From an uncultured virus (IMG/VR IMGVR_UViG_3300036760_000336) (taxonomy: Duplodnaviria > Heunggongvirae > Uroviricota > Caudoviricetes): a stretch of 20,000 nucleotides of DNA. Where the stretch lies: IMG/VR virus record IMGVR_UViG_3300036760_000336, positions 56,166 to 76,165 of that record, one strand, 5' to 3'. The position numbers and the translations under genes are program-made. Of the stretch, positions 2,773 through 20,000 are shown in pieces. How positions within the stretch are numbered: the first letter of the stretch is position 1; each line of letters starts with the position of its first letter. The notes beneath the pieces are model-generated. The model saw only the letters and a program-made list of their open reading frames with translations, was not told the origin of the DNA and made no database searches.

Positions 2773-3075
2773 ATGTATAGAAGTAGAAGAGTGGAAAATT
2801 TTCCTCATAATTCCTTTTATATGGAAATAGAAGAGGGTGTTAGGCAATGGGTATATTTATTGAGAAATGTGGGAATAAATACTGAGTGTTCCTGTCATCA
2901 CAAAGGTTATATTCAATGTCAAACATTAGATCCAACAACCGAAATTTTTAGAATAAAAAGTGTACTTTTGGAAAATGGAATAGAAGATTTTGATATATCT
3001 ATTATTCATAAAGGAACTAAGTGTAGTTCTTTGGAAATTCATTCTCCATCTTTTGTGAAAAATTGTAATGTATAG
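2773..3075 (+). CDS. Hypothetical protein with a GIxTxxSC-H motif
   Basis: 100-aa ORF filling the operon gap, with motif LRNVGINTECSCHH. Confidence 0.65.
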   Translation: MYRSRRVENFPHNSFYMEIEEGVRQWVYLLRNVGINTECSCHHKGYIQCQTLDPTTEIFRIKSVLLENGIEDFDISIIHKGTKCSSLEIHSPSFVKNCNV

Positions 3076-5377
3076 AGGAAAAGTTATATCACCTGCCGAA
3101 GTTGATTTCTGGCTGGATTTTGATAAGTATGTAAATTACTTTTCAAGCACTTCGGGAAATGTAAATGATGTCGGTATTTTCACTATTGACATGGTACGTC
3201 TATCCTCTATCCGGAAAGCGGTTTCCAATTTTGTTCGTATTTTAACTCGCAGCCCCATTCCTGTCTATTTTAATGATGTCGAGGCTAATTTCAATCTCGG
3301 AGGTAAAGTCATTTATATTTCTGCGACAATTAACTCCAAGCAGGATTTTGATGTCGCCGTGGGTCAAGCTCTTCATGAAGGCGCACACACGGTTAAGACT
3401 AACTTTGATGTTGTTAAAAATGCCTGGGCAAATATCCCATCTAAAATTCTCAAATTATCTGACTCAAAAAATATTCGCCGGGCATCTTTGGAAAAGTTTA
3501 TTCATAATATATGGAATGTCATTGAAGATAGATATATTGATAATTACGTATTCAATGAAGCCCCGGGTTATCGTGGATATTATGTTGCTTTGTACAATAG
3601 GTTTTGGAATAATCCCGAAGTTGATGAACTATTGCTCAGTGATAAATTTCGATATCCAAGCCTGGATTCTTACAGTTTTCGTATCACCAACTTTACTAAT
3701 GTGAATACAGATCTTCTTGCTTTGCCTCGTCTTTCGGATATTGCTTATACTATTGACATTTCTCATATTGACCGTTTGAAGAAAACCAAGGATAGAATTG
3801 AAAAAGCATTTGAAGTAACGGAAATTGCATTGGATTGTTTAGATGGGACTCCTCAATGTTTTGGTCTTAGTTTATTAGGTAAAAAAGTAGTAATAAAACA
3901 ATCAAAAGATAATCTTGCCGATCCCAGAGATTATTTCGATTTTGATGACGAATCTGACAAAAAATCAAAAGGCGAAGATAAAAAGGATAAGGAAAAAAAG
4001 AATAGTGATAGCGAAAAAGAAGATGTTGATGTCGGAAAAAAGATGGTTGATGAAATTTCTGATGTTTTGACTGGGAAGGATCAAGAACCCGAGAAACTGA
4101 AAGAAAATAGTGATGTGGTAAATAGGATTTCCGAGGAAGATAATATTGAGAGAGAAGTTAAAAAGAAGATTAAGGATGTTGTCGAGTCTCAGCGTCAATT
4201 CCTGGCAGGAGAAATTCCTAAGACTATTGTGACAGAACAACAGAAATCTCTACTTGATTTGGTAGAAAAGCATGGTATTGTCATTGTACAAGTTGATGTT
4301 CCCAATATTTTATCGGGCGATGATAAAAATCTTAAGGTAGATTGTATTGTGGTTCAGAAAATGACCAAAGAACTTGTTTTTTCGGGTCGGGAAGTATTCC
4401 CGCTATCAAGTGTTATGAAGATCGGGGATCAAATTCCCAAACCAGAGAAAGAAATGGTGGAAGCGGTAAGAAAAGGAGTACAACTTGGCATTAAACTTGG
4501 TCGAAAATTGCAAATTCGTGCCGAGGTTCATCCTATCAAAATAGTCCGCAAGAAATGGGGGAAAATTAACAAGCGTCAAATACACGAAGCAGCGTTTGAT
4601 GCTGAGGATTTATTCTATAAAATTAAAATTGACGATCATCATCGTGCCAATTTGCATATTACCGTGGATGCTAGTAGCTCTATGACCGGAAACAAGTGGC
4701 TAAGAACAATGACAGCCGTTGTCGCCATTTGTAAAGCTGCTTCGATGATCGATAATGTTCACATCACAGTGTCATTCAGATCCACACAAGCATCGGGAAT
4801 AATGGCATTGCCTTATATCGTGTTTGCTTACGACTCAAAAAAGGATAAATTCTCTAAAATTCGTACTCTATTTCCATATCTATTGCCGAATGGGTGTACT
4901 CCAGAAGGATTAGCATTCGGTGCAATTATGAATTTGTTTGAAGGAATCACACCAGACGAAGAAGATCGCTACTTTCTCAATTTATCGGATGGAGAACCGT
5001 ATTATTTATTGAGCGTTCCCAACTCTGGTCTTGCTCTTTCATATTCAGGAGAAGTAGGGGCAACCCATACAAAGGCACAAGTAGATAAGATCCGTCGCCA
5101 CGGAGTTGAAATATTGAGTTATTTTATTGAAGAGGACTATAGCTGGCGATTTCAGACAGCAGCGGGGCAAAATCTAAAAAAGAAGCCCGAAGAAATGACT
5201 AAAGAAGAACTTGAGGAAGAGAAACGATTACAGCTAGAGAAAGAACAAAGTCCTCTTCGTAAAAACTTCCGAAGGATGTATGGACCTTCGGCAAAATTTA
5301 TTGAAGTTAATGATATCGTTCCTTTAGCAAAAACAATGAATGATTTATTTTTGAGTAAAAACAGAAATTGTTCTTGA
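3068..5377 (+). CDS. HExxH metallopeptidase-like domain plus C-terminal VWA domain (CobT-like architecture)
   Basis: ALHEGAH followed by WNVIEDRYID, then a D/E/K-rich linker, then MIDAS residues DASSS, GCTP and LSDGEP. Confidence 0.88.
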   Translation: MYRGKVISPAEVDFWLDFDKYVNYFSSTSGNVNDVGIFTIDMVRLSSIRKAVSNFVRILTRSPIPVYFNDVEANFNLGGKVIYISATINSKQDFDVAVGQALHEGAHTVKTNFDVVKNAWANIPSKILKLSDSKNIRRASLEKFIHNIWNVIEDRYIDNYVFNEAPGYRGYYVALYNRFWNNPEVDELLLSDKFRYPSLDSYSFRITNFTNVNTDLLALPRLSDIAYTIDISHIDRLKKTKDRIEKAFEVTEIALDCLDGTPQCFGLSLLGKKVVIKQSKDNLADPRDYFDFDDESDKKSKGEDKKDKEKKNSDSEKEDVDVGKKMVDEISDVLTGKDQEPEKLKENSDVVNRISEEDNIEREVKKKIKDVVESQRQFLAGEIPKTIVTEQQKSLLDLVEKHGIVIVQVDVPNILSGDDKNLKVDCIVVQKMTKELVFSGREVFPLSSVMKIGDQIPKPEKEMVEAVRKGVQLGIKLGRKLQIRAEVHPIKIVRKKWGKINKRQIHEAAFDAEDLFYKIKIDDHHRANLHITVDASSSMTGNKWLRTMTAVVAICKAASMIDNVHITVSFRSTQASGIMALPYIVFAYDSKKDKFSKIRTLFPYLLPNGCTPEGLAFGAIMNLFEGITPDEEDRYFLNLSDGEPYYLLSVPNSGLALSYSGEVGATHTKAQVDKIRRHGVEILSYFIEEDYSWRFQTAAGQNLKKKPEEMTKEELEEEKRLQLEKEQSPLRKNFRRMYGPSAKFIEVNDIVPLAKTMNDLFLSKNRNCS

Positions 5378-7793: not shown

Positions 7794-8279
7794 ATGAAAA
7801 GGATTAATGACAATCTTCCAAAGAAGAAGTCATTATTTGATCACGTAAAGCATATTCGGCAAGTTCAAGACCCGAATTATTACATTAATCTTTCCGAAGA
7901 TGATCGGAAAAGTTTTAATCACTTCATGATTCTTCGAGCATTGGCAATGGATGAAAGTCTTGTTGAGGATATATCTCAATTATTTCAAATATTTGACAAA
8001 ATACCTTCTCCACAGTTTTACCAATTTCTCATCGCTTTAGTTCCTAGAAACAATAGGTTCTGTCCGTGGGTAAAGTCAAAAGTAATGAAACACAAACCGG
8101 CCTTGCTTGGTTATGTTGCTAAACGATTCCAAGTTTCCAAATATCAGGCTAATGACTATGTAAATCTTTTGTTGCGAACTGAAAAGGGACAGGAAGAACT
8201 TGTGGCTATTTGTAAAACTTTTGGCCTTGAGGATAAGGAAGTTGAGGATTTGTTTGAAGAGAGAAAGTATGATGAATGA
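7794..8279 (+). CDS. Sliding-clamp loader small subunit, T4 gp62-like
   Basis: Pattern LFDH...FNHFMILRALAM...QFYQFL..LVPR..RF.PWVK...VAKRFQVS..QA..Y..LL, with an AGGAG SD. Confidence 0.75.
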   Translation: MKRINDNLPKKKSLFDHVKHIRQVQDPNYYINLSEDDRKSFNHFMILRALAMDESLVEDISQLFQIFDKIPSPQFYQFLIALVPRNNRFCPWVKSKVMKHKPALLGYVAKRFQVSKYQANDYVNLLLRTEKGQEELVAICKTFGLEDKEVEDLFEERKYDE

Positions 8280-8451: not shown

Positions 8452-8749
8452 TCTTATTAAGGCGGGGATGGACAATGATACATTGGTATTTATATCAATC
8501 CCTAACGAATCATCATACGCAATAAAAGTTTCTGAATTGCGGAAATTGACATCGTTATGGAGACATTGGTTAAAATTCAGGAGGATATTTATAAATGAAA
8601 GTAGTCGGAATAGCAGGATATGCGAGATGCGGGAAGGATACATTCGTGGGGATAGCGAAGAACATTTTAATGAAGAACGGCTATCTCCCCTTCCGTGTGG
8701 CATTTGCGGACCAGTTGAAGAAAGAAGCTCAATCAATGCTGGAGGCTAA
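8405..8749 (+). CDS. Hypothetical protein with a MANKKLSDLP N-terminus
   Basis: AGGA SD upstream. The N-terminal KKxSxLP motif resembles the starts of phage fibre/structural proteins. The last 155 nt overlap the kinase gene. Confidence 0.5.
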   Translation: MANKKLSDLPRVTADDLIKAGMDNDTLVFISIPNESSYAIKVSELRKLTSLWRHWLKFRRIFINESSRNSRICEMREGYIRGDSEEHFNEERLSPLPCGICGPVEERSSINAGG

Positions 8750-9293
8750 TGCCTTTAAGGCATCGGTTTATACCGATGTCAGTGAAGAAAAAACCTTGAT
8801 CCGTCCTCTTCTCGTATGGTGGGGATGTCAGCGAAGATATGAAAGCCCCGAGGGGTTATATTGGGTAAATATTGCCGATGAAATAATCCACAATTACATG
8901 GCGATGACCCATCATACTATGGATACTGATGAAAATAAGCTTATAACTTTTGTATCTGACGTTCGATTTCCGAATGAAGCCAAATGGATTCATGAAAAGT
9001 GGGACGGAACAGTTATTCATTTGAAACGATATAGTATGAACTGGCGAAAGGGAGGTCAAGATGGAAGCGACCTATATCATGTGAAAGAGTACGACCCCGC
9101 TCCAAACGAGGAAGAAGAGAAACAAGATCCTATCGTTCAGAAAATGGCGGATCACTGTATCGAGTGGCAAAACAAGAAAAAAATGACAAGTGCCGAAGCG
9201 ATAGAAGATTTAGAACTTCAAAAAATAGTTTTGGAAGCCCTCAACTCAACGAAATTTTTCAAACATCCAACTATCGGGATATTATCCCAATAA
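8595..9293 (+). CDS. Deoxynucleoside monophosphate kinase, T4 gp1-like
   Basis: P-loop GIAGYARCGKDT, AFADQLK, RPLLxxWG and SDVRFPNEA, with an AGGAGG SD. Confidence 0.85.
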   Translation: MKVVGIAGYARCGKDTFVGIAKNILMKNGYLPFRVAFADQLKKEAQSMLEANAFKASVYTDVSEEKTLIRPLLVWWGCQRRYESPEGLYWVNIADEIIHNYMAMTHHTMDTDENKLITFVSDVRFPNEAKWIHEKWDGTVIHLKRYSMNWRKGGQDGSDLYHVKEYDPAPNEEEEKQDPIVQKMADHCIEWQNKKKMTSAEAIEDLELQKIVLEALNSTKFFKHPTIGILSQ

Positions 9294-9564
9294 GTTGTCC
9301 GTTGTCGTTATAGAAAGAAATTTGTCGTTCCGAAATTTTTGAGAGGAACTCGTGCTTTAATCTTGGAATTACGTTTCGTACTGCATTATGATAAACACCA
9401 TTACACATATTATAGATCTTCACCTTGTCCTCCCGCTTATAGCAACTACATGCTGCTGTGTAATTTTGAATACATTGTATCACTTGTAAAAAAGATGAAT
9501 CCATCCTTGTTATACCATTTCCTTCGAGAAAGTTAACGAACTGTGTAACATTTCGTATATCCAT
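9271..9564 (-). CDS. Hypothetical protein
   Basis: 97-aa ORF with several Cys (CSC), last gene of the minus-strand run. Confidence 0.65.
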   Translation of the reverse strand: MDIRNVTQFVNFLEGNGITRMDSSFLQVIQCIQNYTAACSCYKREDKVKIYNMCNGVYHNAVRNVIPRLKHEFLSKISERQISFYNDNGQLIGIISR

Positions 9565-9570
9565 AGGGTC

Positions 9571-9909
9571 TTATCCAAGTAGTTTATCAATGACGGTGAA
9601 TAGTAATAACCCACCAACGATGTAACCCGGAGTTAACCACATTGCAGTAATTACTCCGAAGAATATTCCCATCCATACTGCAAGGCAAACCGGACAAGTA
9701 ATCAATCTTATTACAAAGCAGTTGTGGTATAATCTAAGATAATGTAAATATTCTAATGATACATCTTCCTTGTGTTTAGTATCAAAGTCCTTATAGAACG
9801 ATAAGAAGTTTAACCGAAAAAGACGAGTATATTCAAGCCAGGCATCGGTACGAAACCATATCAAAAGATTCAAGGCGATAAGACATGTGAAAACGAATAG
9901 TGATGTCAT
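9571..9909 (-). CDS. DUF1360-like membrane protein
   Basis: Hydrophobic N- and C-terminal helices around LITCPVCLAVW. Confidence 0.65.
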   Translation of the reverse strand: MTSLFVFTCLIALNLLIWFRTDAWLEYTRLFRLNFLSFYKDFDTKHKEDVSLEYLHYLRLYHNCFVIRLITCPVCLAVWMGIFFGVITAMWLTPGYIVGGLLLFTVIDKLLG

Positions 9910-9914
9910 TATGC

Positions 9915-11207
9915 TTATAAATATATCAACTCTACATTATCAAGAGAAGGATTTTTGACTGCTACATTTTCCTGTATTCGGTTCGGTATTGGAAAAGTAT
10001 TTATTGTGAGATAGCCCTTTCCCCATTGGTATGTTCCAGGACCATCTTGATTACTTTGTTGGTGTAAAATATCGTTAAGATTGAGAAGTACATTATCTGA
10101 GAACACATTCATACTTTGATAGTCTATATCCATGATAACATCTTCGGTTTCCAAGGGCTTATTTACAAAAATATCTTTTCCTTCCCATGTTCGATAGTAC
10201 TTTTTGTATATCTCCCATAATGGTGGTGTAATGTCAAGAAGATTATTGGCAGGAATATGCAATTTGTCATATTCTTTAATTAAGTTGTTTCTCACCACTT
10301 CATTGTCAATGTATATCTTGTCAAATCTATAATAGTTTTGGAATATGACAACTCCATCAAGAGGAGTAACATTCTTGAAATTGATACTAGCGTGATATTT
10401 GTATTCTTTTAGAGGATCAAAAGTCGTTGTATGCTTAAATGTTGGCCATTTGCGAAGAAATCTTTGCATTTCAATTATATCGGCTATAGATTGGAGCCGG
10501 GTTCTTGCTTGGAATTTTTCAGTCCACCATTCAATTCCTCGGGACGAAATGCAGGTGAAATGATATACTAAAGCATTCCAAATTTGCTTAATTTTCAATC
10601 CTTTCATCGAAAAACGATATAATAAGTCAGAATCTTCCCGAGAACGACGAAAAAGGGTATCATGTCCTCCAATTTCAACCCAATTTTTCTTATAAAGAGT
10701 GAAGGGAGCGAACCAGAAGTCGGTCTGATGAAGGCTTTTATTTGCCTCGGCAAATGTTGTGAAATCATCCAGAATAAATGTTTTGGGGTCTAACCCAAAG
10801 TCATAGGTAATTTTTTCCGGAGATGGTGGGTGAAGTGGTGGCTCGATTCTGGTAGCTGATATGATAGTATCGGGAGTTAGATATTTCAATATTTCATCAT
10901 CATAATCTTTACAGATGATCATATCGCTCTGTAAGTAACTTACAACATCAGTTTGAGCCATTTCAAACATTAAGTTTATATTTCTAGAATATCCCAAAGG
11001 TATTGGTAATGGATTTTTTATAATTCTGAGATTGGGGAAGTGTTGTTTTTGAGTTACGAGGAAGCTCGTGGTGTCCTGATTATCATTTTCCACATAAACG
11101 AGAATGTCGTGGTCTTTGCGGGAAAGATTTTTGGCAAGAGAACGGAAAAGTAACTCAAGATGCTGTCGCTCGTTTTTAGCAGTATTGATGCAGAAAGTTA
11201 TTTTCAT
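9915..11207 (-). CDS. Glycosyltransferase family 2 (GT-A) with C-terminal extension
   Basis: MKITFCIN start coupled by an ATGA overlap; VYVEND, YLQSDM, IGGHD, REDSD and VYHF motifs. Confidence 0.85.
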   Translation of the reverse strand: MKITFCINTAKNERQHLELLFRSLAKNLSRKDHDILVYVENDNQDTTSFLVTQKQHFPNLRIIKNPLPIPLGYSRNINLMFEMAQTDVVSYLQSDMIICKDYDDEILKYLTPDTIISATRIEPPLHPPSPEKITYDFGLDPKTFILDDFTTFAEANKSLHQTDFWFAPFTLYKKNWVEIGGHDTLFRRSREDSDLLYRFSMKGLKIKQIWNALVYHFTCISSRGIEWWTEKFQARTRLQSIADIIEMQRFLRKWPTFKHTTTFDPLKEYKYHASINFKNVTPLDGVVIFQNYYRFDKIYIDNEVVRNNLIKEYDKLHIPANNLLDITPPLWEIYKKYYRTWEGKDIFVNKPLETEDVIMDIDYQSMNVFSDNVLLNLNDILHQQSNQDGPGTYQWGKGYLTINTFPIPNRIQENVAVKNPSLDNVELIYL

Positions 11208-12058
11208 AGAACTTTTTCTATAGTACGACACAATCCTTCATCAAATCCAATCAATTTATCGACTATAGGCAATTCATAAAGATTTTTATAATCACCTGTA
11301 TAACTTCCATACCCAAATGGTTCTATTTCTTTGATTGCAGGTCCATGTATTTTGGTATGTTTATGTATAAGATTTGCTATTTTCAACAAATCCATTTTTT
11401 TGTCATAAACTAGGTTGAGATTTCGTTGCCAAGTTGGATTATGGAAAATATAATCCATCACTATGAAAATGTCATCCATGTAAAAAAAATCCATCTCCAT
11501 ATTCCGATGGATTTCTATTGGCAATCCTTTTTTAAGATTGAGAATAGAACGTTTTATAAAGCGGGTATCCTCTTCATTATAATTGAAACATCCAAAAATG
11601 CGAAGCACCCACATATTCTCGAAATCCGAAAGTGCTCTTCGTGCAATAATATTTTTTGATAAGCCATAAGGATCGGTGGGCCACCTGGAGAAAAGGTACT
11701 CTTCACGACATAATTGTATTGGATATCTTCTATCAAACTCTGCTCCCGAACCTATAAGAATTGTTGGAGGAAAATCATGATAGTTTTGAAGTATAGCACG
11801 ATATAGATTTTCAAACATTCTGATATTTGGAATATATACTTCATCAAATGTATCCTTTTTGGTGCGTTTCCCTCCCTTTGTAGCAGCATGGATAATAGCA
11901 TCTGGATGATTTTGTTTTAGATATTCAACCAAAGATTCAAAATTGAAAAGATCCAGTTCTGTTCGTGAAGGAGCAAGAACATCATACCCCGCCCGTTCAA
12001 ATAGAGGTTTGAGATTTCTTGCTATATAGCCGCTTCCACCTGTGATTAGGAGTTTCAT
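11204..12058 (-). CDS. NAD-dependent epimerase/reductase (extended SDR)
   Basis: LITGGSGYIA, GSGAEF and catalytic YGLSK. Confidence 0.9.
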   Translation of the reverse strand: MKLLITGGSGYIARNLKPLFERAGYDVLAPSRTELDLFNFESLVEYLKQNHPDAIIHAATKGGKRTKKDTFDEVYIPNIRMFENLYRAILQNYHDFPPTILIGSGAEFDRRYPIQLCREEYLFSRWPTDPYGLSKNIIARRALSDFENMWVLRIFGCFNYNEEDTRFIKRSILNLKKGLPIEIHRNMEMDFFYMDDIFIVMDYIFHNPTWQRNLNLVYDKKMDLLKIANLIHKHTKIHGPAIKEIEPFGYGSYTGDYKNLYELPIVDKLIGFDEGLCRTIEKVL

Positions 12059-12537
12059 TTAATTAGATTTATGTAATGAGGTTTTTCATCATGTAAAAAA
12101 AGTAGAAATTCGTTTGTTAGATCTAATACCGTTGGCGGTTTTGATGAAATGATGCTTTTGAATTGTTTCATAATTGCCATATCTTCTTCGGCCCAGTGCG
12201 TAAAACCTAAATATCCATAATCTTTATCTCTTCCTCCACCAACCAGTTTTATAGGAAGTTTTTCATATTCCATAAAATTTCTTATGAACTCGAATGGACG
12301 ATAAAGCAGAAAAGATGTAATGGAATAGCAGATAGGGGTCTTTCCTTCCATTGCTAAACCAGCGGCAACTCCAATCATAAATTGTTCAGCCGAACCCACA
12401 TTGAAAAATCTATCAAAAAATTCTTTACGAATATCGTCCCATAGACCATATCCCATATCAGCGGTTATAAGGATGATGTTTTTTCCACGATCCTTACGCA
12501 TTTCTGTTAAAAGCATTTTGGCAAAATCTCGTCTCAT
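12055..12537 (-). CDS. Transketolase-like subunit, pyrimidine-binding domain only
   Basis: ITADMG, RFFNVGSAEQFMIGVAAGLA, RPFEFIR and GFTH motifs; ATGA-coupled start; 160 aa. Confidence 0.88.
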   Translation of the reverse strand: MRRDFAKMLLTEMRKDRGKNIILITADMGYGLWDDIRKEFFDRFFNVGSAEQFMIGVAAGLAMEGKTPICYSITSFLLYRPFEFIRNFMEYEKLPIKLVGGGRDKDYGYLGFTHWAEEDMAIMKQFKSIISSKPPTVLDLTNEFLLFLHDEKPHYINLIK

Positions 12538-13169
12538 TTGCATATCTCCATTGCTATATCATAATCTTCTTTGGACATTATTTTATAATGGGCGTTCAAA
12601 TCATGAAGGAAGGGGAAGTGTTCGGAAGTGCAGTTTATAATTGAAACTTGAGCTTTTTGAGTAAATCCCGATATTTGACGATATAATTTATATGGTGGAA
12701 TTGGATCATAAGCACCATAGCCATTAGACATAATATACACTTGAATGTTGGGAACATCATTCATGTCTAAAAATCGTAATGCTTCCCAAAATACACCCTC
12801 GGCTGTTTCTCCATCACTAACCATTACGTGAATTCGACGATTTTTATTAGTCAATGCTCGGCCAACGGCGGCAGCTATTCCCATTCCTAAACTGCCAGTA
12901 GAGCAGTAAATGTGATTTTCCTCGTCTAAGTGAGGATGTCCACCATGCTTTTTGAAAAGTTCCTCGGCATCATGACCATAGTATTTTTCAAGTACAACAT
13001 ATAAAGCGAGGGCAGCATGTCCATTAGAAAGAATGAAAATGTCATCGAGTTTCTTTTTCTTAAAAATCCAATCAATCGTATCTACACATGAAAAATAGCT
13101 TCCCAGATGAGCAAGTTTATGTTTATAAGCAATCTCAATTATTCGTTTCTTCAAGTCTTTATTTACCAT
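12534..13169 (-). CDS. Transketolase-like subunit, ThDP-binding N-terminal domain
   Basis: AHLGS, ILSNGHA, GHP, STGSLGMG and SDGETAEG...N motifs. Confidence 0.9.
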   Translation of the reverse strand: MVNKDLKKRIIEIAYKHKLAHLGSYFSCVDTIDWIFKKKKLDDIFILSNGHAALALYVVLEKYYGHDAEELFKKHGGHPHLDEENHIYCSTGSLGMGIAAAVGRALTNKNRRIHVMVSDGETAEGVFWEALRFLDMNDVPNIQVYIMSNGYGAYDPIPPYKLYRQISGFTQKAQVSIINCTSEHFPFLHDLNAHYKIMSKEDYDIAMEICK

Positions 13170-14134
13170 ATAAAATTGTCCTGGTAATATTTTACCACAG
13201 CCGGCAATTCTTTGTCAAATTCACAGAGATTTTTCCACCCGAGTTTTCGTAATTTACTATCATCAAGACTATAGCGTAAATCTTGACCATCACGAGAATA
13301 TGAAAAATCACAATAATCTTTTGCTTTTCCAGTTAAATTCACATCTGAACTCATAATAAGTTTAGTTATTTTTTTGACTACCTCTATATTAGAAAGTTCA
13401 CAATCTCCCGAGATGTTATATATCTCATTGAGTGGCGCTCCTTCATCATTGGCATAGATTATAGTTACAACGGCATATGCTGTGTCTTTAGCATGTAACC
13501 ATACTCGTTTTGGAAGCCCAAAATTATGAAGAGGAATTTTTTTCCCGAGTTGAATAAATTTGCATGTCTTGGGAATGAGTTTTTCTACGTACTGTCCAAT
13601 CCCATAGTTATTCGTAGGTCTAACAATAATGTATGGAACCTTGAACGTTCTTCCCCAAGCTGTGATAAGCATATCTGCCGCTGCTTTAGTTGCTGAATAT
13701 GGATTGCTTGGTTTGAGTAAATCTTTTTCCGTATATGAACCTTCTTTGATGTTTCCATATACTTCGTCGGTGCTAAAATGTAAAAATATTGGCATCTTGT
13801 ACCTATCCTTTTGACGAATGAGTTCCAATAGATGTTTTACTCCTTTGATATTAGAATGAATGAACTCATCACTATTTACGATAGAATTGTCCACATGTGT
13901 TTCAGCAGCAATATTGATTACATAATCGCAATCGTATAATGAAGTCAGATCATTTATATCGGCGTGGATAAACTTGAATTCTTTCCATTGAAGAAACTCT
14001 TTCAATGCCTCTGGTTGAGCGGCATAGGTCATTTTATCTACTCCGATGACATACCATCCTTCATCTAAACATTCTCTGGTAACATATGCTCCAATAAATC
14101 CAAGGCAACCTGTAATATATACTATTTTTTTCAT
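13163..14134 (-). CDS. rmlB: dTDP-glucose 4,6-dehydratase
   Basis: TGCLGFIG, DKMTYA, AAETHVD, STDEVYG, PYSATKA, NNYGxxQxxEKLIP and RDGQDLRY motifs; ATGA-coupled start. Confidence 0.9.
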   Translation of the reverse strand: MKKIVYITGCLGFIGAYVTRECLDEGWYVIGVDKMTYAAQPEALKEFLQWKEFKFIHADINDLTSLYDCDYVINIAAETHVDNSIVNSDEFIHSNIKGVKHLLELIRQKDRYKMPIFLHFSTDEVYGNIKEGSYTEKDLLKPSNPYSATKAAADMLITAWGRTFKVPYIIVRPTNNYGIGQYVEKLIPKTCKFIQLGKKIPLHNFGLPKRVWLHAKDTAYAVVTIIYANDEGAPLNEIYNISGDCELSNIEVVKKITKLIMSSDVNLTGKAKDYCDFSYSRDGQDLRYSLDDSKLRKLGWKNLCEFDKELPAVVKYYQDNFIW

Positions 14135-14829
14135 AACATTTTCTTGAATTGAAAGTAAAAATTCCAACTCTGTATTAGTTCATCCGGCATTGTTTCCTCA
14201 CTATTCAGTTTTGGGTAATGCGGAGTTTGTAGCGGTGACGGATAGACCGCAACAGACTCAAGTTTATGTATGTACATAAAATACAAAAAATTGTCGTAAT
14301 CCCATAATCCTCTATATAAAAACTGGTGGGCCATTCTCCAATTTGGAATGCTTATCATTAAAATAGAGTTCTTGTGCATCAAACTGTATATTTTTTTCAT
14401 TACATTTGACGGAGCTATCAAGTGTTCGAGGGTATCATTACAAATAATAAGATCATAGACAGGAAAAAGTCCACTTACATCCATATCCATAGAAATATCT
14501 TTCACAAAAAAGGTTCCTTTGAACTTTTTATTATCAAAATATTTTTTGGCAAATGGTTTATCTACTAAATGATAATTCACTGGATACGAAAGTTTGGTTT
14601 GTATTTTTTGACTTAGAATACCCGGGCCAGACCCAACTTCCAGTATGGTCTTGACCTGAATTGAAGAGACAATTTCAACAGTAAGAGATGCTTCGTATTC
14701 ATATCGGTTATCCCACCCGTTTTCGTCTAATCGTCCGACAGTATCCCATTCATTTGGATCGAGAGTATCTACTTTGTTGGCAGTAAAACTTCGTTCAAAA
14801 TCGTTATGTGTAACTCGGAACATTGCCAT
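14131..14829 (-). CDS. Class I SAM-dependent methyltransferase
   Basis: ILEVGSGPG, YDLIICNDTLEHL and ISIPN motifs. Confidence 0.85.
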   Translation of the reverse strand: MAMFRVTHNDFERSFTANKVDTLDPNEWDTVGRLDENGWDNRYEYEASLTVEIVSSIQVKTILEVGSGPGILSQKIQTKLSYPVNYHLVDKPFAKKYFDNKKFKGTFFVKDISMDMDVSGLFPVYDLIICNDTLEHLIAPSNVMKKIYSLMHKNSILMISIPNWRMAHQFLYRGLWDYDNFLYFMYIHKLESVAVYPSPLQTPHYPKLNSEETMPDELIQSWNFYFQFKKML

Positions 14830-14830
14830 A

Positions 14831-15493
14831 TTAGGTAATTTGTTTCATTTGAAGATTGGTCAGGTCATATTTATATTTTATGGACGATTTTTTCAAAAAT
14901 ACTTGCCAGGCGTGGTCAAGCATTTGAAAATTTCCCTGATAAGCATTTAAAAAGGCATCAATTCCTAGTTTTGGTTTTTGTTTTTCGTCAGTGGTATGAA
15001 TACCCCATCCATAATTGTTGAAAATAAGAATTCCTCCATCTTTGAGGAGATTCCATGACAGAACAGCATCACTTAATACATCAATTGCCAAATTAGAACC
15101 ATCAACATAAACATAATCCACAGTTTCAGATATGAATACACTTGGATCACGAAGTATGTCATACGATTTTCCTTTCATAAACCGAATGTTTTTGTAAGGA
15201 ACAATGTTATTTGTGAGATATTCAGTCTCGGTGATGTCAATAGTGTAATGGAGACTATTTTCTCCATTTGTAATTCTATCGGCGCAGAACACAGCGCAAT
15301 CTCCATTATACGCTCCTATTTCTATCCCAAGTACATTTGGTTTATTTGAAAAATGCCCTAAATAAGTTTGCCATTTTGGAATCCACTTCTCAAAAAAATT
15401 TGATCCCATAAATCCTTCGGGTCTTTTCATGTGAAATGGATAAGTGTAGGTTGTAATATCTTTTGTTAATGTATATTCCGCTTTATCACTCAT
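14831..15493 (-). CDS. Class I SAM-dependent methyltransferase, Methyltransf_24-like
   Basis: IEIGAYNG, DYVYVDGS and LLKDGGILIF motifs. Confidence 0.78.
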   Translation of the reverse strand: MSDKAEYTLTKDITTYTYPFHMKRPEGFMGSNFFEKWIPKWQTYLGHFSNKPNVLGIEIGAYNGDCAVFCADRITNGENSLHYTIDITETEYLTNNIVPYKNIRFMKGKSYDILRDPSVFISETVDYVYVDGSNLAIDVLSDAVLSWNLLKDGGILIFNNYGWGIHTTDEKQKPKLGIDAFLNAYQGNFQMLDHAWQVFLKKSSIKYKYDLTNLQMKQIT

Positions 15494-16848
15494 ATGTTTT
15501 TAAAAAATTCCTTTACTATTTGTTCTACATAATCCAGTTGTGGTGATGTAATTACTGGACTGGTTCCTAAAAAGAAAGTGTTGGTTGTTACTAAAGTTGC
15601 CACCGGAAAAAGTTTTCTCGCCCACTCAGCGTTCATTCCTATTGCTTGTCGTAATATTCCATAATCATTATGCCACCACCCTATGTCTGCATATGCAGGT
15701 TGAAGAAGAAGATTGCCGCCGAAATAATTTCGGGTTTGAATCTTGTATTCTTCCAAATAACTTGTAAGTTTAGATCGTGTAAATGGGCCACATTGTTTTA
15801 CTGTAAGAGGAAATGCAAACCAAGAAGGATCTGAATTCGGCGTAGCTTCATGAATATATAGAAATTCTTCATAGGGTTTGAATATATCATATAACCGCTT
15901 ATAGTTTGCCTTCCGTATTTCGTGGATTTTTGGTAATTTTTTCATCTGAGCAAGTCCAATAGAACATTGAAGTTCTATGGGTTTCAGATTATACCCGATA
16001 TTATCATATACATATTTGTGATCAAATATTTCTTCTGGAAGCGAAGGCAACCAGTTTTTGAATCGGCATCCACAGGTGCCCTTGGGTGAAAGATTTGCCT
16101 TCTTTCCAACACAATAGCATCCACGTCCCCACTCTCTAAAGCTACGGGCGATTTTCTTTTGTTCTTCATTTTCACAAGCAAGAAATCCACCTTCGCCCAT
16201 TGTCATATGATGAGCGGGGTAAAATGAGCATGTAGATAATTTTCCATAACTTCCCAGAGGCTTGTTTCTGTAAGTTGAGCCGAGGGCATCACAACAATCT
16301 TCCAAAAATATCATGCCATATCTATCCATAATGTCGATCAATTCATCCATATTGGGAGGATTGCCTAACACATGAGCAAATATAATAACTGCGGCACCAT
16401 TTTTGGCAGCTATTTTTACTTGATACAAATCCGGACCAAGATTCCACGGATCAATATCAATAAATACAGGTTCAAATCCGGCTTGAATGATTGGATTGAC
16501 TGTCGTTGGAAATCCTGCTACAGGAACAATGACCTTGGTTCTGTTTTTGAGTTTGAAGTACTTCTTGGCAGTGACCATCATTAAAAGATTGGCACTGGAA
16601 CCACTATTGGTGATTATGCCATAGTATTTTCCAAGCAGGGATGGAAACGTCTTTTCAAATTCCACCGCATCTTGTCCAAGAATAAGCCATTCATCGAGCA
16701 ATGTGTTTATCGCTTTGGAATACTCCTCACCATCAAAGTAAGGACCAGAATATTGAACCCAATCTTTACCTGGAGTCCATATTTTGGCCGCTTGTTTTTC
16801 GGCCATATATTCTTCGATGAGGTTTAATATTTCTTGTTTTGTAACCAT
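15490..16848 (-). CDS. rfbH: NDP-4-keto-6-deoxyglucose 3-dehydrase (E1, RfbH/DdhC type)
   Basis: NSGSSANL, AGFPTTVNP, HVLGNP, EDCCDALG, SFYPAHHMTMGEGG (His in place of the PLP Lys), Cys cluster WGRGCYC...TCGCRF, DHKYVY and TRxxFGGNL. Confidence 0.92.
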   Translation of the reverse strand: MVTKQEILNLIEEYMAEKQAAKIWTPGKDWVQYSGPYFDGEEYSKAINTLLDEWLILGQDAVEFEKTFPSLLGKYYGIITNSGSSANLLMMVTAKKYFKLKNRTKVIVPVAGFPTTVNPIIQAGFEPVFIDIDPWNLGPDLYQVKIAAKNGAAVIIFAHVLGNPPNMDELIDIMDRYGMIFLEDCCDALGSTYRNKPLGSYGKLSTCSFYPAHHMTMGEGGFLACENEEQKKIARSFREWGRGCYCVGKKANLSPKGTCGCRFKNWLPSLPEEIFDHKYVYDNIGYNLKPIELQCSIGLAQMKKLPKIHEIRKANYKRLYDIFKPYEEFLYIHEATPNSDPSWFAFPLTVKQCGPFTRSKLTSYLEEYKIQTRNYFGGNLLLQPAYADIGWWHNDYGILRQAIGMNAEWARKLFPVATLVTTNTFFLGTSPVITSPQLDYVEQIVKEFFKNI

Positions 16849-16856
16849 ATTTTTGT

Positions 16857-16885
16857 AGTATATCACCTTTGTTACTACCTGGCAA
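16857..16885 (-). promoter_or_regulatory. Sigma70-like promoter with extended -10, internal to the glycan cluster
   Basis: On the minus strand: TTGCCA (16885-16880), 17-nt spacer, TG-n-TATACT (16862-16857). The ATG at 16848 is 8 nt downstream. Confidence 0.7.
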
Positions 16886-16899
16886 CTTATTTTATGTTC

Positions 16900-17829
16900 T
16901 TAACCAGTATATATATCTTTTAGATGATCAAATATTTCAAATTGGAGATTTGGATTGAATGTAAGAATTCCAAATGTAACATTGCTCGGTGATCCAATAA
17001 AATAATGACATCGTGACAGGTTTATTGTATCAGTAAGAACATAAACATATTCATCCAAAAGAGATTCGGTTTTAATCCAACCTTTTCTAAATCCTCCATC
17101 TGTAATTGAAGATATACTACTTCCATCCAAATATGATGAGGTTTTTCGTGTCCAATCTTCGAGACCAAAAGTTCTTTGATGGTTGACATAAATTAACTTA
17201 TCCTGAAACTTGATTTTGCAAAGTTCCAAAAACCCATGTTGATCACAACCTAAATATATCTGTTCAAATCCCCCACTTTCAAATGTTCGTTCTATTTGGT
17301 TAAGACACATTTCATGATATTGTTCATTCGAAAGTCGGGCAGAAAGCGGTAAGTTTAATTCGGAGTTCTGGAAATAATGAAGAATAAATCTATACTGAAC
17401 CCCAAGAGTTTTCTTTGAGAAATCGGCAAAGGATATTATATTCGGTTTAAGAGTTAAATACTTCGCATAAGCATTGTAAAGAACGGCTCTCAATTTTCCA
17501 AACTTGGGGTTTAAATATATTTTTCCACCGCAATAGAACCATCCCTTATATTCGTCATACATGTCTCCAACAATTTGTTGTCTCAACTGGTCAACTCTAT
17601 TTATCCTAAATGATGAACCTTGATAATATCCATCATTGTTTTTGTCAGAAGGTTCAAATTTGTATTTTTGATTAAATAACTCCTCAAATATGTTTATACC
17701 ATCTCTGTCCCATCCGTTCCACAGAATATAAATCGGTTCTCCGCTGAGTTCGGAATACCAGCACCAATCAATAACAGCGTTGAAATTACTGAAAAATCCT
17801 GCCAGAGGTCTGTTTTTGATGATAATCAT
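16900..17829 (-). CDS. NodZ/O-fucosyltransferase-like GT-B glycosyltransferase
   Basis: AGFFSNF, LGVQYR (cf. GVHxR), IYLGCD (cf. IFLATD) and DTINLSRCHYFIGSPSNV; ATGA-coupled start. Confidence 0.7.
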   Translation of the reverse strand: MIIIKNRPLAGFFSNFNAVIDWCWYSELSGEPIYILWNGWDRDGINIFEELFNQKYKFEPSDKNNDGYYQGSSFRINRVDQLRQQIVGDMYDEYKGWFYCGGKIYLNPKFGKLRAVLYNAYAKYLTLKPNIISFADFSKKTLGVQYRFILHYFQNSELNLPLSARLSNEQYHEMCLNQIERTFESGGFEQIYLGCDQHGFLELCKIKFQDKLIYVNHQRTFGLEDWTRKTSSYLDGSSISSITDGGFRKGWIKTESLLDEYVYVLTDTINLSRCHYFIGSPSNVTFGILTFNPNLQFEIFDHLKDIYTG

Positions 17830-18635
17830 ACTTTTATTGAAATCCAGTCTGAGGGGAACCACGATCCATTTATAAAGTCAAATTCTCCTGGCCCAACATA
17901 CTGATATGGACATACTACTATTTTGTCAGGATTAGGATTGAGATATGCTCCCCACCAGCCGAATGTACTATTTGCTATGATATTATGATTACACATGGAC
18001 ATTATACACATGTCAACATAGTTAGAGTTATTTTCACTATAAACAACATTATCTCCTGTTATGTTTTCTTTACACCACGGGATGTCATCCGAGAAAACTA
18101 TAATAGTAAATTGTGGAACCTTCGTTTGAATAATGTTAAATGCATCTTGATAATAATTCAAATCAAGATTGAGAGAAGATACTTGTAAATAATCTGTGCG
18201 TCTGAAATGCATAGATACGAATGGAGGCTTGATGGATTGTAAAAAAGAGGAGGCTTTCTCTACTATTTCTTTTTTGAACCGATATTCTTTACATATGTCT
18301 GATCTATATTCATCCCAATATTTGTACACATGGAAACACCCCATAATATCCCAGTTGAGAGACGGATCTATGGAATAAACATCTAAATCTACTACTTGAT
18401 TTTTCAAATAATATCTGCAAAACTGGACTCCTTGTAGTTCTGACAAGGATACCAACTTTCCGGTTAAGTTAAATGGCTCGAATATTTTTATCCCACGATG
18501 GACATTCATCAATTCTCGAAAAAACACGATATCATGCCCCATTTTTTTGGATAATGCATAGAGACCGGCATATTGACTCATTTGCGAACCCATTTGTGGT
18601 CCCATAGACAAATCAGTTTTGGTTAGAAAGCTCAT
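17826..18635 (-). CDS. GT11 alpha-1,2-fucosyltransferase-like protein
   Basis: MGSQMSQYA, MHFRRTDY, FSDDIPWC and MSMCNHNIIANSTFGWWGAYL motifs. Confidence 0.9.
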   Translation of the reverse strand: MSFLTKTDLSMGPQMGSQMSQYAGLYALSKKMGHDIVFFRELMNVHRGIKIFEPFNLTGKLVSLSELQGVQFCRYYLKNQVVDLDVYSIDPSLNWDIMGCFHVYKYWDEYRSDICKEYRFKKEIVEKASSFLQSIKPPFVSMHFRRTDYLQVSSLNLDLNYYQDAFNIIQTKVPQFTIIVFSDDIPWCKENITGDNVVYSENNSNYVDMCIMSMCNHNIIANSTFGWWGAYLNPNPDKIVVCPYQYVGPGEFDFINGSWFPSDWISIKV

Positions 18636-18813: not shown

Positions 18814-20000
18814 TTATAAAAGATCTTCCAAATAGCGACTGAAAAACTTGTCGTTATCCATCCATAAATCGTCAGCAAGTTTGTAGTTTTTTTCGATGAC
18901 TCCAATTCTTTTAGTATAATCATCGGGAGTAAGTGTAGTAACAATATTTAGTAACTCTTCTGGAGTATTGAATGTGATGATTCCATCCATATCAAAGAAA
19001 TCAGAAATATTCGGGCATCCCCAATAAATCGGAATGGTTCCCGTCAAAAAGCAGTCAAGGATTTTTTCACTATAGTAATTCGGATATATTCCATTTTCCA
19101 TTGAAACTGAAAATCGGTATTCTTTCAATGCTTCAATTTTTCCTGCTATCTCACGAATACCAACCCCAAACAAATCTATGTGAGCGCCTTTGGAGAGGAG
19201 ATATTCCACACATTTTAGACGAAATTGGTGTCCTTCCGAGAAAGTTTTGGCAGAAGTGATGAAAGATATGTTCTTCGATTTAGGATACACCTTCATCAAA
19301 GAGTTATCTTGTAAAATAGGATATGTTTGCTTGTGGATATTCTTGTTTAGAACCACTTCGTAAGCACTATTACGATGTACAGCATTTGGTAGATGTAATA
19401 AATCTTTGCTGCAAGTTATTATCCTATCAAATTTGTCGGCGGAAGTTAGTACTCTTTGATATACTTTACTCTGTTCGAAGAGATAAGGAGGTTCATGAAC
19501 ATCTGCTACAATTTTTCCGTGTGGAATCTTGTAAGTTCCGTCTAAATACTTCAAAATTTCATCGTCTTGAAACAATGTAATATCGAATTCTCCCCAGGTT
19601 CTCTTATAAACGAAAGAAAATTTGGTGGGAATGCTATTTCTTTCTTTATAATCCCCGAACATATTGATTTGAGGCAATTTTACACCACGTTCCAATTCTT
19701 CACGACTCTTTACTCGAATATAGATTTTTTTGACACGAATTTCTTCTTCATAGATTGTATTTTTGCTATCTTCACGTTCCCTGGTTCGAAGATTGTTCTG
19801 TTTGGAATTATTATAGACATATGTTGGAAAAGTTATCACTCCAATTTTTTCTATGGGAGTCATTTCCAGCATAGGATACATCAATGATAAATCGTGGGCA
19901 TGCCAATACAATTTTTTGTCTATGTTAGAAATTAAATCTACCGGATCTATCTTGTCATACAAAAACTTGCGGAAAGTTCTCATGTGGGATGCTCTCCACA
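18814..20000 (-). CDS. Fusion glycosyltransferase: GT2-like part (truncated by the window) plus C-terminal GT10 fucosyltransferase-like domain
   Basis: The frame is open to the window edge (WRASHMRTF). SHxRTF...DxxxxxPMLEM...YVYN resembles a GT2 C-terminal part, and YRFSVSMEN...YYSEKILDCFLTGTIPIYWG is the GT10 signature. Confidence 0.8.
   Translation of the reverse strand, partial: WRASHMRTFRKFLYDKIDPVDLISNIDKKLYWHAHDLSLMYPMLEMTPIEKIGVITFPTYVYNNSKQNNLRTREREDSKNTIYEEEIRVKKIYIRVKSREELERGVKLPQINMFGDYKERNSIPTKFSFVYKRTWGEFDITLFQDDEILKYLDGTYKIPHGKIVADVHEPPYLFEQSKVYQRVLTSADKFDRIITCSKDLLHLPNAVHRNSAYEVVLNKNIHKQTYPILQDNSLMKVYPKSKNISFITSAKTFSEGHQFRLKCVEYLLSKGAHIDLFGVGIREIAGKIEALKEYRFSVSMENGIYPNYYSEKILDCFLTGTIPIYWGCPNISDFFDMDGIITFNTPEELLNIVTTLTPDDYTKRIGVIEKNYKLADDLWMDNDKFFSRYLEDLL

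Follow-up and report, generated by a model that had tools for sequence, protein, structure and literature searches.

The question raised by this locus is what a split transketolase-like enzyme does in the middle of a phage operon for deoxysugar synthesis. The DNA studied here, referred to below as the window, is the whole stretch of 20,000 nucleotides that forms the final 20 kb of a 76,165-bp uncultured virus record (IMG/VR IMGVR_UViG_3300036760_000336, positions 56,166 to 76,165; GC content 0.37). Its sugar operon is a single minus-strand run that extends from the window end at 20000 down to the last gene at 9271. It contains two adjacent short genes, here called TKN and TKC, for the two chains of an enzyme predicted to depend on thiamine diphosphate (ThDP). 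We read the operon as a phage cluster for nucleotide-sugar synthesis and glycosylation, the core of which would make a 3,6-dideoxyhexose with a carbon branch at C4 by a yersiniose-like route; we regard the chances of this reading as about even. A preliminary description of the region 11204..16848 had arrived at a yersiniose-like pathway, and that interpretation appears partly supported by the comparisons below.

The genes on which that description was built, namely those for an E1-type 3-dehydrase, two methyltransferases, a 4,6-dehydratase, the split transketolase, a short-chain dehydrogenase/reductase (SDR) and a family 2 glycosyltransferase (GT2), were all recovered in place on the minus strand, to which all operon coordinates below refer. 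According to the coordinates of the open reading frames (ORFs), neighbouring genes from E1 to GT2 overlap by 4-37 nt or lie 1 nt apart, so they form one translationally coupled operon, as had been claimed. The claim that a virus encodes them likewise holds, with phage structural and replication genes across the remainder of the record. The operon also exceeds the region first described; even the E1 ORF spans 15490-16866, position 16848 being the first ATG within it.

TKN (12534..13169, 211 aa) represents the ThDP/PP-domain half of this miniature split enzyme and TKC (12055..12543, 162 aa) the Pyr-domain half, with Pfam scores of 38.7 bits to Transketolase_N (cut-off 22) and 51.7 bits to Transket_pyr (cut-off 27), respectively. 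TKN matches the Carboxydothermus split transketolase 6yak_A (2.3e-12), and TKC matches both the split-transketolase chain 6yaj (5.1e-17) and DXS (7.7e-11). Structure models of both chains were built, each from its family alignment. The TKN model (predicted local distance difference test score, pLDDT, 88) fits 6yak_A, the alpha chain of the split transketolase, with a TM-score (TMq) of 0.85 and human transketolase with 0.78-0.83; by comparison, it matches BCKDH E1 alpha poorly (0.44-0.53 versus 0.78-0.85 for transketolases). The TKC model (pLDDT 91) resembles DXS, the split-transketolase beta chain and human transketolase alike (TMq 0.82-0.86). H21, H51, H78, D119, N149 and H194 are invariant in the TKN family, and the ThDP/Mg motif S118-D119-G120 ... 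N149 is kept in alignment with 6yak; His194 may be the second-shell histidine of transketolase (E. coli His261). In TKC the cofactor-activating Glu53 and His116 are invariant and align with 6yaj.

The two phage chains are much shorter than those of the split transketolase (211 + 162 aa, 373 in total, versus 309 + 341 aa). TKC stops at residue 162, where the Pyr domain ends, and the transketolase C-terminal domain PF02780 is absent. The transketolase motif H-x7-GEDG-x2-H reads G-x5-GYLG-x2-H in the TKC family: in the alignment of TKC GGGRDKDYGYLGFTH with 6yaj ATHAGLTVGEDGASH, Gly, Tyr and Leu stand at positions 461, 468 and 469, and YINL corresponds to YLRL, with Asn at the Arg position of the transketolase YxRL motif. 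These pocket replacements are invariant or nearly so across the TKC family. In E. coli transketolase numbering we take them to be His461 to Gly, Glu468 to Tyr, Asp469 to Leu and Arg520 to Asn, positions that bind the sugar phosphate and the 2-OH of the acceptor. Since the C-terminal domain is missing and the pocket is remodelled, the pair is, judged by its sequence, not a housekeeping transketolase.

Could the pair nevertheless be an auxiliary metabolic transketolase that serves the pentose-phosphate pathway or the Calvin cycle of the host? Its Pfam and NCBIfam names are 'transketolase', but the best NCBIfam transketolase model gives only 72.3 bits for TKN and 45.4 bits for TKC, far under the equivalog cut-off of 488. 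Together with the absent C-terminal domain, the replacement of what we take to be the His461, Asp469 and Arg520 positions, and the fact that almost all relatives likewise have the pair coupled within an operon for deoxysugars, this makes such a role highly improbable. Virome papers do read viral tkt genes in that way (PMC4053976, PMC12615777). The closest longer relatives of the phage pair are beta chains of 303-325 aa that possess PF02780 and share 39-48% identity. In most of 12 aligned longer beta chains the Asp469 position is already occupied by Leu, so the pair looks like a miniaturised offshoot of a non-canonical group of split transketolases.

The TKN/TKC family is strongly conserved and mostly viral. 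Altogether, 3,898 of 3,987 candidates were TKN homologues at E <=1e-5, and the best 120 are 202-252 aa long with 57-76% identity. A profile search of 1.84 billion representatives yielded 177 TKN clusters at E <=1e-30, nearly all of the best 150 being about 200-235 aa long, and in the nearest Atlas clusters viruses account for 73-100% of the members to which a taxon is assigned. In IMG/VR a relative is encoded by 231 of 257 pattern matches; the best 80 of these 231 viral contigs, which hold 61 distinct TKN sequences, are the loci compared below. A megablast search with the operon against deposited phage records gave no match, and tblastn with TKN against deposited phage records gave 11 weak matches of 29-37% identity, none with at least 80% query cover; near copies of the window's record, or that record itself, may have been absent from the set searched. 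The TKN profile found nothing at E 1e-30 in 401 Verrucomicrobiota genomes, a single phylum searched with no positive-control genome. A scan of genome contigs with single-protein patterns returned one weak match to an ordinary transketolase and says little about bacteria.

The enzymes encoded around the pair are those expected to make a keto-sugar. The product of 15490..16866 is predicted to be an E1/RfbH-type nucleoside diphosphate (NDP)-4-keto-6-deoxyhexose 3-dehydratase, which depends on pyridoxamine 5'-phosphate (PMP) and [2Fe-2S]. It reaches 432.8 bits with NCBIfam NF011936, above the equivalog cut-off of 423, matches PF01041 (DegT/AAT fold, E 9.6e-70) and aligns end to end with Yersinia E1 (PDB 3bcx, E 2.3e-95). 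Its FYPAHHMT is aligned to FYPAHHIT of 3bcx and to FYPAKHIT of the H220K entry 3bb8; in the His220 column of Yersinia E1, His replaces the Lys that binds pyridoxal 5'-phosphate. The Cys residues of EDCCDALG, CYC and TC are also aligned with Yersinia E1, and we take them to be the [2Fe-2S] ligands. The NDP-glucose 4,6-dehydratase (13163..14167) scores 291.7 bits with TIGR01181, under the cut-off of 365.1, and 73.9 and 47.9 bits with the CDP-type and GDP models. Its PDB matches include 2hun (5e-65) and RmlB entries at E 5e-65 to 1e-40. By these matches it clearly belongs to the RmlB (dTDP-glucose) family, and its substrate nucleotide is probably dTDP.

The same enzymes accompany the pair in its relatives. 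When the 13 window proteins were compared with the 80 loci by tblastn, TKN and TKC were found in all 80, the SDR in 77, RmlB in 75 and a match to the E1 (DegT) family of dehydratases in 67, which is the co-occurrence that the preliminary description had called for. The other proteins, which are described further below, were found less often: GT2 in 37 loci, a family 10 glycosyltransferase (GT10) in 36, the Methyltransf_23 enzyme in 15, two small proteins in 12 each, a family 11 glycosyltransferase (GT11) in 10, the Methyltransf_24 enzyme in 4 and a 320-aa protein in one. TKN, TKC and SDR are contiguous in 74 of the 80 loci. The RmlB gene immediately precedes them in 62 of the 80 and follows shortly after them, with E1 in between, in 11. 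Among the 74 contiguous loci, RmlB is directly upstream in 59, the order TKN-TKC-SDR-E1-RmlB occurs in 10, and 4 have no RmlB and an E1-like gene directly upstream.

Clustering of the neighbours gave 73 DegT-family proteins in 65 loci, and all 73 have His at the E1 His220 column, as assigned in a MAFFT alignment with three representatives checked against E1 or ColD structures. An E1 with the four aligned cysteines is present in 44 loci and an E1-like protein that lacks them in 18, while 3 loci have a ColD-like protein only. The protein of locus L045 belongs to the Cys-less E1-like type, with 3bcx as its best PDB match (2.5e-55) and FYASHV aligned to FYPAHH; that of L019 is ColD-like, with a ColD/WbdK match of 1.7e-58. 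These dehydratase partners indicate that the ThDP pair is accompanied by enzymes for the synthesis of 4-keto-6-deoxy sugars, usually 4-keto-3,6-dideoxy sugars. The Cys-less E1-like dehydratases are about 380 aa long (for example L045:7915-9054), have lost the whole Cys motif and are closest in the PDB to Yersinia E1 and not to ColD; the loci given for this type are L028-L033, L043, L045-L049, L062 and L069-L080. Some related clusters (for example L044:14219-15937) add a B12-binding radical-SAM enzyme, a cytidylyltransferase-cupin fusion or a mannose-6-P isomerase/NTP-transferase protein, which points to considerable glycan diversity around the same ThDP core.

The last enzyme of the core is an extended SDR reductase (11204..12058; Pfam Epimerase 1e-21, RmlD_sub_bind 1.1e-10), the GGSGYIA and YGLSK of which represent the GxxGxxG and YxxxK motifs. 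Its PDB match 9gpi (3.1e-05) extends across residues 3-60 only, and the matches are to the N-termini of RmlD and GDP-fucose synthase. Several observations weigh against a branched product. A C4 ketoreductase would be an equally good reading of the SDR, and if that is its role, then RmlB, E1 and this one SDR already make up a complete ordinary pathway to a 3,6-dideoxyhexose. Neither Fer2 or NAD_binding_1 (E3-type reductase) nor a ferredoxin was found in the 76-kb record, which is about 24% complete, and no pathway nucleotidyltransferase was found in it either. In one relative with a completeness rating of 100%, neither a Fer2 nor an NTP_transferase domain is present; NAD_binding_1 was not searched in the relatives. 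Because of these absences, host NDP-glucose and host redox proteins are presumed to be used. Transketolase-type sugar-branching enzymes, moreover, are proposals only in a 2025 review (PMC12247030). Finally, 13 of the 80 loci, 6 of them with at least 3.7 kb on both sides, contain no 3-dehydratase, so the ThDP enzyme does not depend on 3-deoxygenation.

An ordinary unbranched 3,6-dideoxyhexose would be the product if the SDR acted as the C4 ketoreductase after RmlB and E1, and the ThDP pair did another job, for example a non-branching rearrangement. It is established for abequose- and paratose-type sugars that RmlB, E1 and a single reductase suffice, and the likeness of the SDR N-terminus to RmlD and GDP-fucose synthase would agree with this. 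However, an invariant and coupled ThDP enzyme between dehydratase and SDR in 74 of the 80 loci is then left unexplained. Pfam detected no second reductase in the window, and we know of no other ThDP-dependent reaction on NDP-ketosugars. We judge the unbranched product to be unlikely.

If the sugar is branched, the nature of the added unit depends on the chemistry of the pair. The preliminary description had suggested that a transketolase takes the place of YerE and adds a glycolaldehyde-type unit. The gene context and the non-housekeeping character of the pair support the exchange of enzymes, but the glycolaldehyde-type unit is not favoured over a pyruvate-derived acetyl group, because the Pyr half resembles DXS, which uses pyruvate, as closely as it resembles transketolase. 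DXS-like chemistry would lead to an acetyl branch and transketolase-like chemistry to a hydroxyacetyl branch. The nearness to a pyruvate-decarboxylating carboligase, together with weak E1_dh and TPP_enzyme_C similarities, would also suit a 2-keto-acid decarboxylase/carboligase that supplies a small aldehyde or acyl block for a glycan substituent and does not attack the NDP-sugar at all. The tight linkage is, however, to the keto-sugar-forming enzymes, and among 38 annotated neighbour clusters (from the 45 most frequent) of the 80 loci there is no partner of the acyl carrier, E2/lipoyl, CoA-ligase or PEP-mutase type. Supply of such a building block is thus quite unlikely.

In the C4-branching pathway that we prefer, the RmlB-like enzyme would convert host NDP-glucose, probably dTDP-glucose, into NDP-4-keto-6-deoxyglucose, and E1 would then remove the 3-OH by means of PMP and [2Fe-2S] to give NDP-4-keto-3,6-dideoxyhexose. 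Both steps follow the family membership of the enzymes; the electron donor of E1 would come from the host. For the later steps we rely on synteny, the remodelled pocket and chemistry. The miniature alpha/beta ThDP enzyme would add a C2 carbanion to the C4 ketone, which results in a tertiary alcohol; pyruvate as donor would give an acetyl branch, and hydroxypyruvate or a ketose a hydroxyacetyl branch. On chemical grounds, a 3-deoxy-4-keto sugar has no cleavable alpha-hydroxyl and would therefore be an acceptor, not a transketolase donor. The SDR might then reduce the branch ketone, and one or both methyltransferases might modify the sugar. In a final step the soluble GT2 and the fucosyltransferase-like glycosyltransferases would build it into a glycan, the acceptor of which is probably cytoplasmic.

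The system to which this pathway is most readily compared is CDP-yersiniose A of Yersinia pseudotuberculosis. This sugar requires a 4,6-dehydratase, E1/E3, YerE and YerF, and 4-keto-3,6-dideoxyhexose is the acceptor of YerE (PMC9306805). The phage operon shares with it the 4,6-dehydratase and the PMP/[2Fe-2S] E1, followed by a ThDP enzyme and a reductase (PMC9306805). The phage ThDP enzyme has a two-chain transketolase fold of 373 aa, whereas YerE is a single-chain flavoprotein of the decarboxylase superfamily; no TPP_enzyme_N or TPP_enzyme_M domain was detected in the window proteins with Pfam. Further differences are that the phage dehydratase is RmlB-type and not CDP-type, that E3 and a nucleotidyltransferase were not found in the 76-kb record, and that the genes are encoded by a phage.

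ThDP-dependent sugar branching is assigned to three superfamilies in the 2025 review: YerE-like decarboxylases branch sugars of lipopolysaccharide (LPS); alpha-KADH2 (E1 alpha/beta) enzymes act in actinomycete antibiotics and are described as making acetyl branches only; and split-gene transketolases have been proposed from gene context to make hydroxyacetyl branches in miharamycin and amipurimycin, with 13 further Streptomyces candidates and none described there as characterised (PMC12247030). The alpha-KADH2 examples are aldgamycin, KbDH of kibdelomycin and Pau11/12 of paulomycin, in which a pyruvate-derived acetyl group is added at C3 or C4 (PMC12247030, PMC4753412). They resemble the phage pair in having two subunits with the PP and Pyr halves on separate chains (PMC12247030, PMC4753412), but the phage pair reaches only 20 bits with Pfam E1_dh (cut-off 22) and a TMq of 0.44-0.53 to BCKDH E1 alpha. 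It shares its fold, ThDP/Mg motif, activating Glu and active-site histidines with canonical and split transketolases (6YAK/6YAJ, human transketolase) and DXS; unlike the canonical and split transketolases it is shorter, lacks PF02780 and has replaced acceptor and phosphate positions. Judged from these features, the pair belongs neither to canonical transketolases nor to YerE or alpha-KADH2.

The pair is closest in concept to the proposed split-gene transketolases, although it is smaller and viral. The miharamycin and amipurimycin enzymes are likewise split transketolase-type ThDP pairs beside keto-sugar-forming enzymes (PMC12247030). They belong to Streptomyces secondary metabolism, whereas the phage pair, which lacks the C-terminal domain, is found mostly in viruses. 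Given these proposals, the idea that a transketolase replaces YerE is not wholly new (PMC12247030). A full-text literature search, the reach of which excluded most subscription journals, returned no description of phage-encoded ThDP sugar branching.

This comparison bears on the wider significance of the phage enzymes. YerE-like and E1 alpha/beta-type enzymes are the only ones for which ThDP-dependent C-branching of sugars is established, and the transketolase-type route is only proposed. The small size, high conservation, solubility and abundance of the phage family make it well suited to testing that route, and it might serve as a biocatalyst for tertiary alcohols. It is possible, although we remain doubtful, that the 211 + 162 aa pair represents a new class of miniature ThDP carboligases with a transketolase fold, essentially restricted to phages, that attach C2 branches to NDP-ketosugars in more than 200 uncultivated large phages. 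Many of the viral 'transketolase' genes that viromics counts as auxiliary genes of the pentose-phosphate pathway or Calvin cycle would then be glycan-tailoring genes. Soluble phage glycosyltransferases would assemble the branched, methylated deoxysugar glycan in the cytoplasm, on a phage component such as virion proteins and not on host LPS. The data suggest that large aquatic phages may encode their own route to rare branched and methylated deoxysugars plus many glycosyltransferases, which raises the question of what such phages glycosylate. They also call for caution, since matches to a 'viral transketolase' may be misread as auxiliary metabolic genes of central carbon metabolism.

Two class I S-adenosylmethionine-dependent methyltransferases are encoded between E1 and RmlB, one of the Methyltransf_24 family (14831..15493, Pfam E 1e-10) and one of the Methyltransf_23 family (14131..14829, E 3e-12). 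TKN-Methyltransf_24 fusions were found in four relatives (P0140, P0141, P0142, P0286) and a Methyltransf_23-TKN fusion in one (P0143), all of which might be ORF-fusion artefacts; by these fusions both methyltransferase types of the window are tied to the ThDP enzyme. Homologues of the Methyltransf_23 enzyme often lie between RmlB and TKN in related loci. In three HNH-TKN 'fusions' (P0201, P0203, P0218), HNH (and NUMOD4) domains are located directly upstream and in frame, which suggests insertions of homing endonucleases in the operon of some phages.

The GT2-family glycosyltransferase (9915..11231, 438 aa; Pfam Glycos_transf_2 26.2 bits, cut-off 23.3) has homologues that usually follow directly after the SDR. 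Upstream of E1 the operon encodes a GT11-family, alpha-1,2-fucosyltransferase-like protein (17826..18635, Glyco_transf_11 E 9.8e-31) and the last 394 aa of a protein that fuses GT2 with GT10 (fucosyltransferase-like; 18814..20000, Glyco_transf_10 E 6.5e-08), the 5' end of which is cut off by the contig end. The full-length fusion is present in IMG/VR locus L005, an identical copy that reaches upstream past the window end, as a 549-aa ORF with Glycos_transf_2 (1.2e-25) and Glyco_transf_10. Beyond the window end, L005:1-2710 contains two FkbM-type methyltransferase ORFs and 332- and 273-aa proteins without a family, and with this extension the whole glycan cluster comprises at least 17 genes.

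The 320-aa protein (16900..17862) might be a further glycosyltransferase of the NodZ/FUT8/O-FucT kind, which we give as a lead only. Its Atlas feature matches have scores of 0.95-0.96 to mostly viral clusters with NodZ, FUT8_N_cat or O-FucT in 11-24% of the members, and no Pfam, NCBIfam or PHROG family was found for it. With GT10 and GT11 it would bring the fucosyltransferase-like glycosyltransferases of the operon to three.

The GT2 contains no hydrophobic segment, and all the glycosyltransferases are predicted to be soluble. Pfam showed no GtrA-, Wzx- or Wzy-like gene in the window, that is, no flippase or polymerase. One might therefore speculate that the glycan acceptor is cytoplasmic, such as virion proteins. 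A Gtr-like system for serotype conversion was rejected, given a GT2 without a membrane segment and no sign of GtrA, Wzx or Wzy in the window. Genes for a deoxynucleoside monophosphate (dNMP) kinase-like protein and a clamp loader adjoin the operon, which makes DNA glycosylation a possible alternative; a homologue of thymidylate synthase/hydroxymethylase was not found in the 76-kb fragment.

The operon ends with two small genes that co-occur in 12 of the 80 loci. The first encodes a 112-aa protein (9571..9909) with hydrophobic segments at residues 1-22 and 63-107 according to its hydropathy, and the second, the last operon gene (9271..9564), a 97-aa protein for which Pfam, NCBIfam and PHROG gave no family at threshold.

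The record from which the window comes covers part of a large T4-like phage. CheckV rates the 76,165-bp record as about 24% complete, which corresponds to a phage of roughly 300 kb. The remaining record encodes a tail tube, a baseplate hub, two tail-assembly paralogues, UvsX, a gp32-like single-stranded DNA-binding protein, a DnaB-like helicase, a clamp loader, ribonucleotide reductase, endonuclease VII and a tRNA nucleotidyltransferase. Genes for a clamp-loader subunit and a dNMP-kinase-like protein are found in the plus-strand half of the window, together with those for a CobS-like AAA protein and a Dam-like methyltransferase. With structural and replication genes on record and window, the viral origin is secure. 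A 769-aa ORF (3068-5377, plus strand) without a Pfam or PHROGs match lies among these genes for replication and nucleotide metabolism. The dNMP-kinase-like gene (8595-9293, plus strand) is convergent with the last operon gene (9271-9564, minus strand) and overlaps it by 23 nt, and the gene for the clamp-loader subunit (7794-8279) is located just upstream of the kinase-like gene. Both neighbours are kept in related loci, the clamp loader in 21 and the kinase-like gene in 13.

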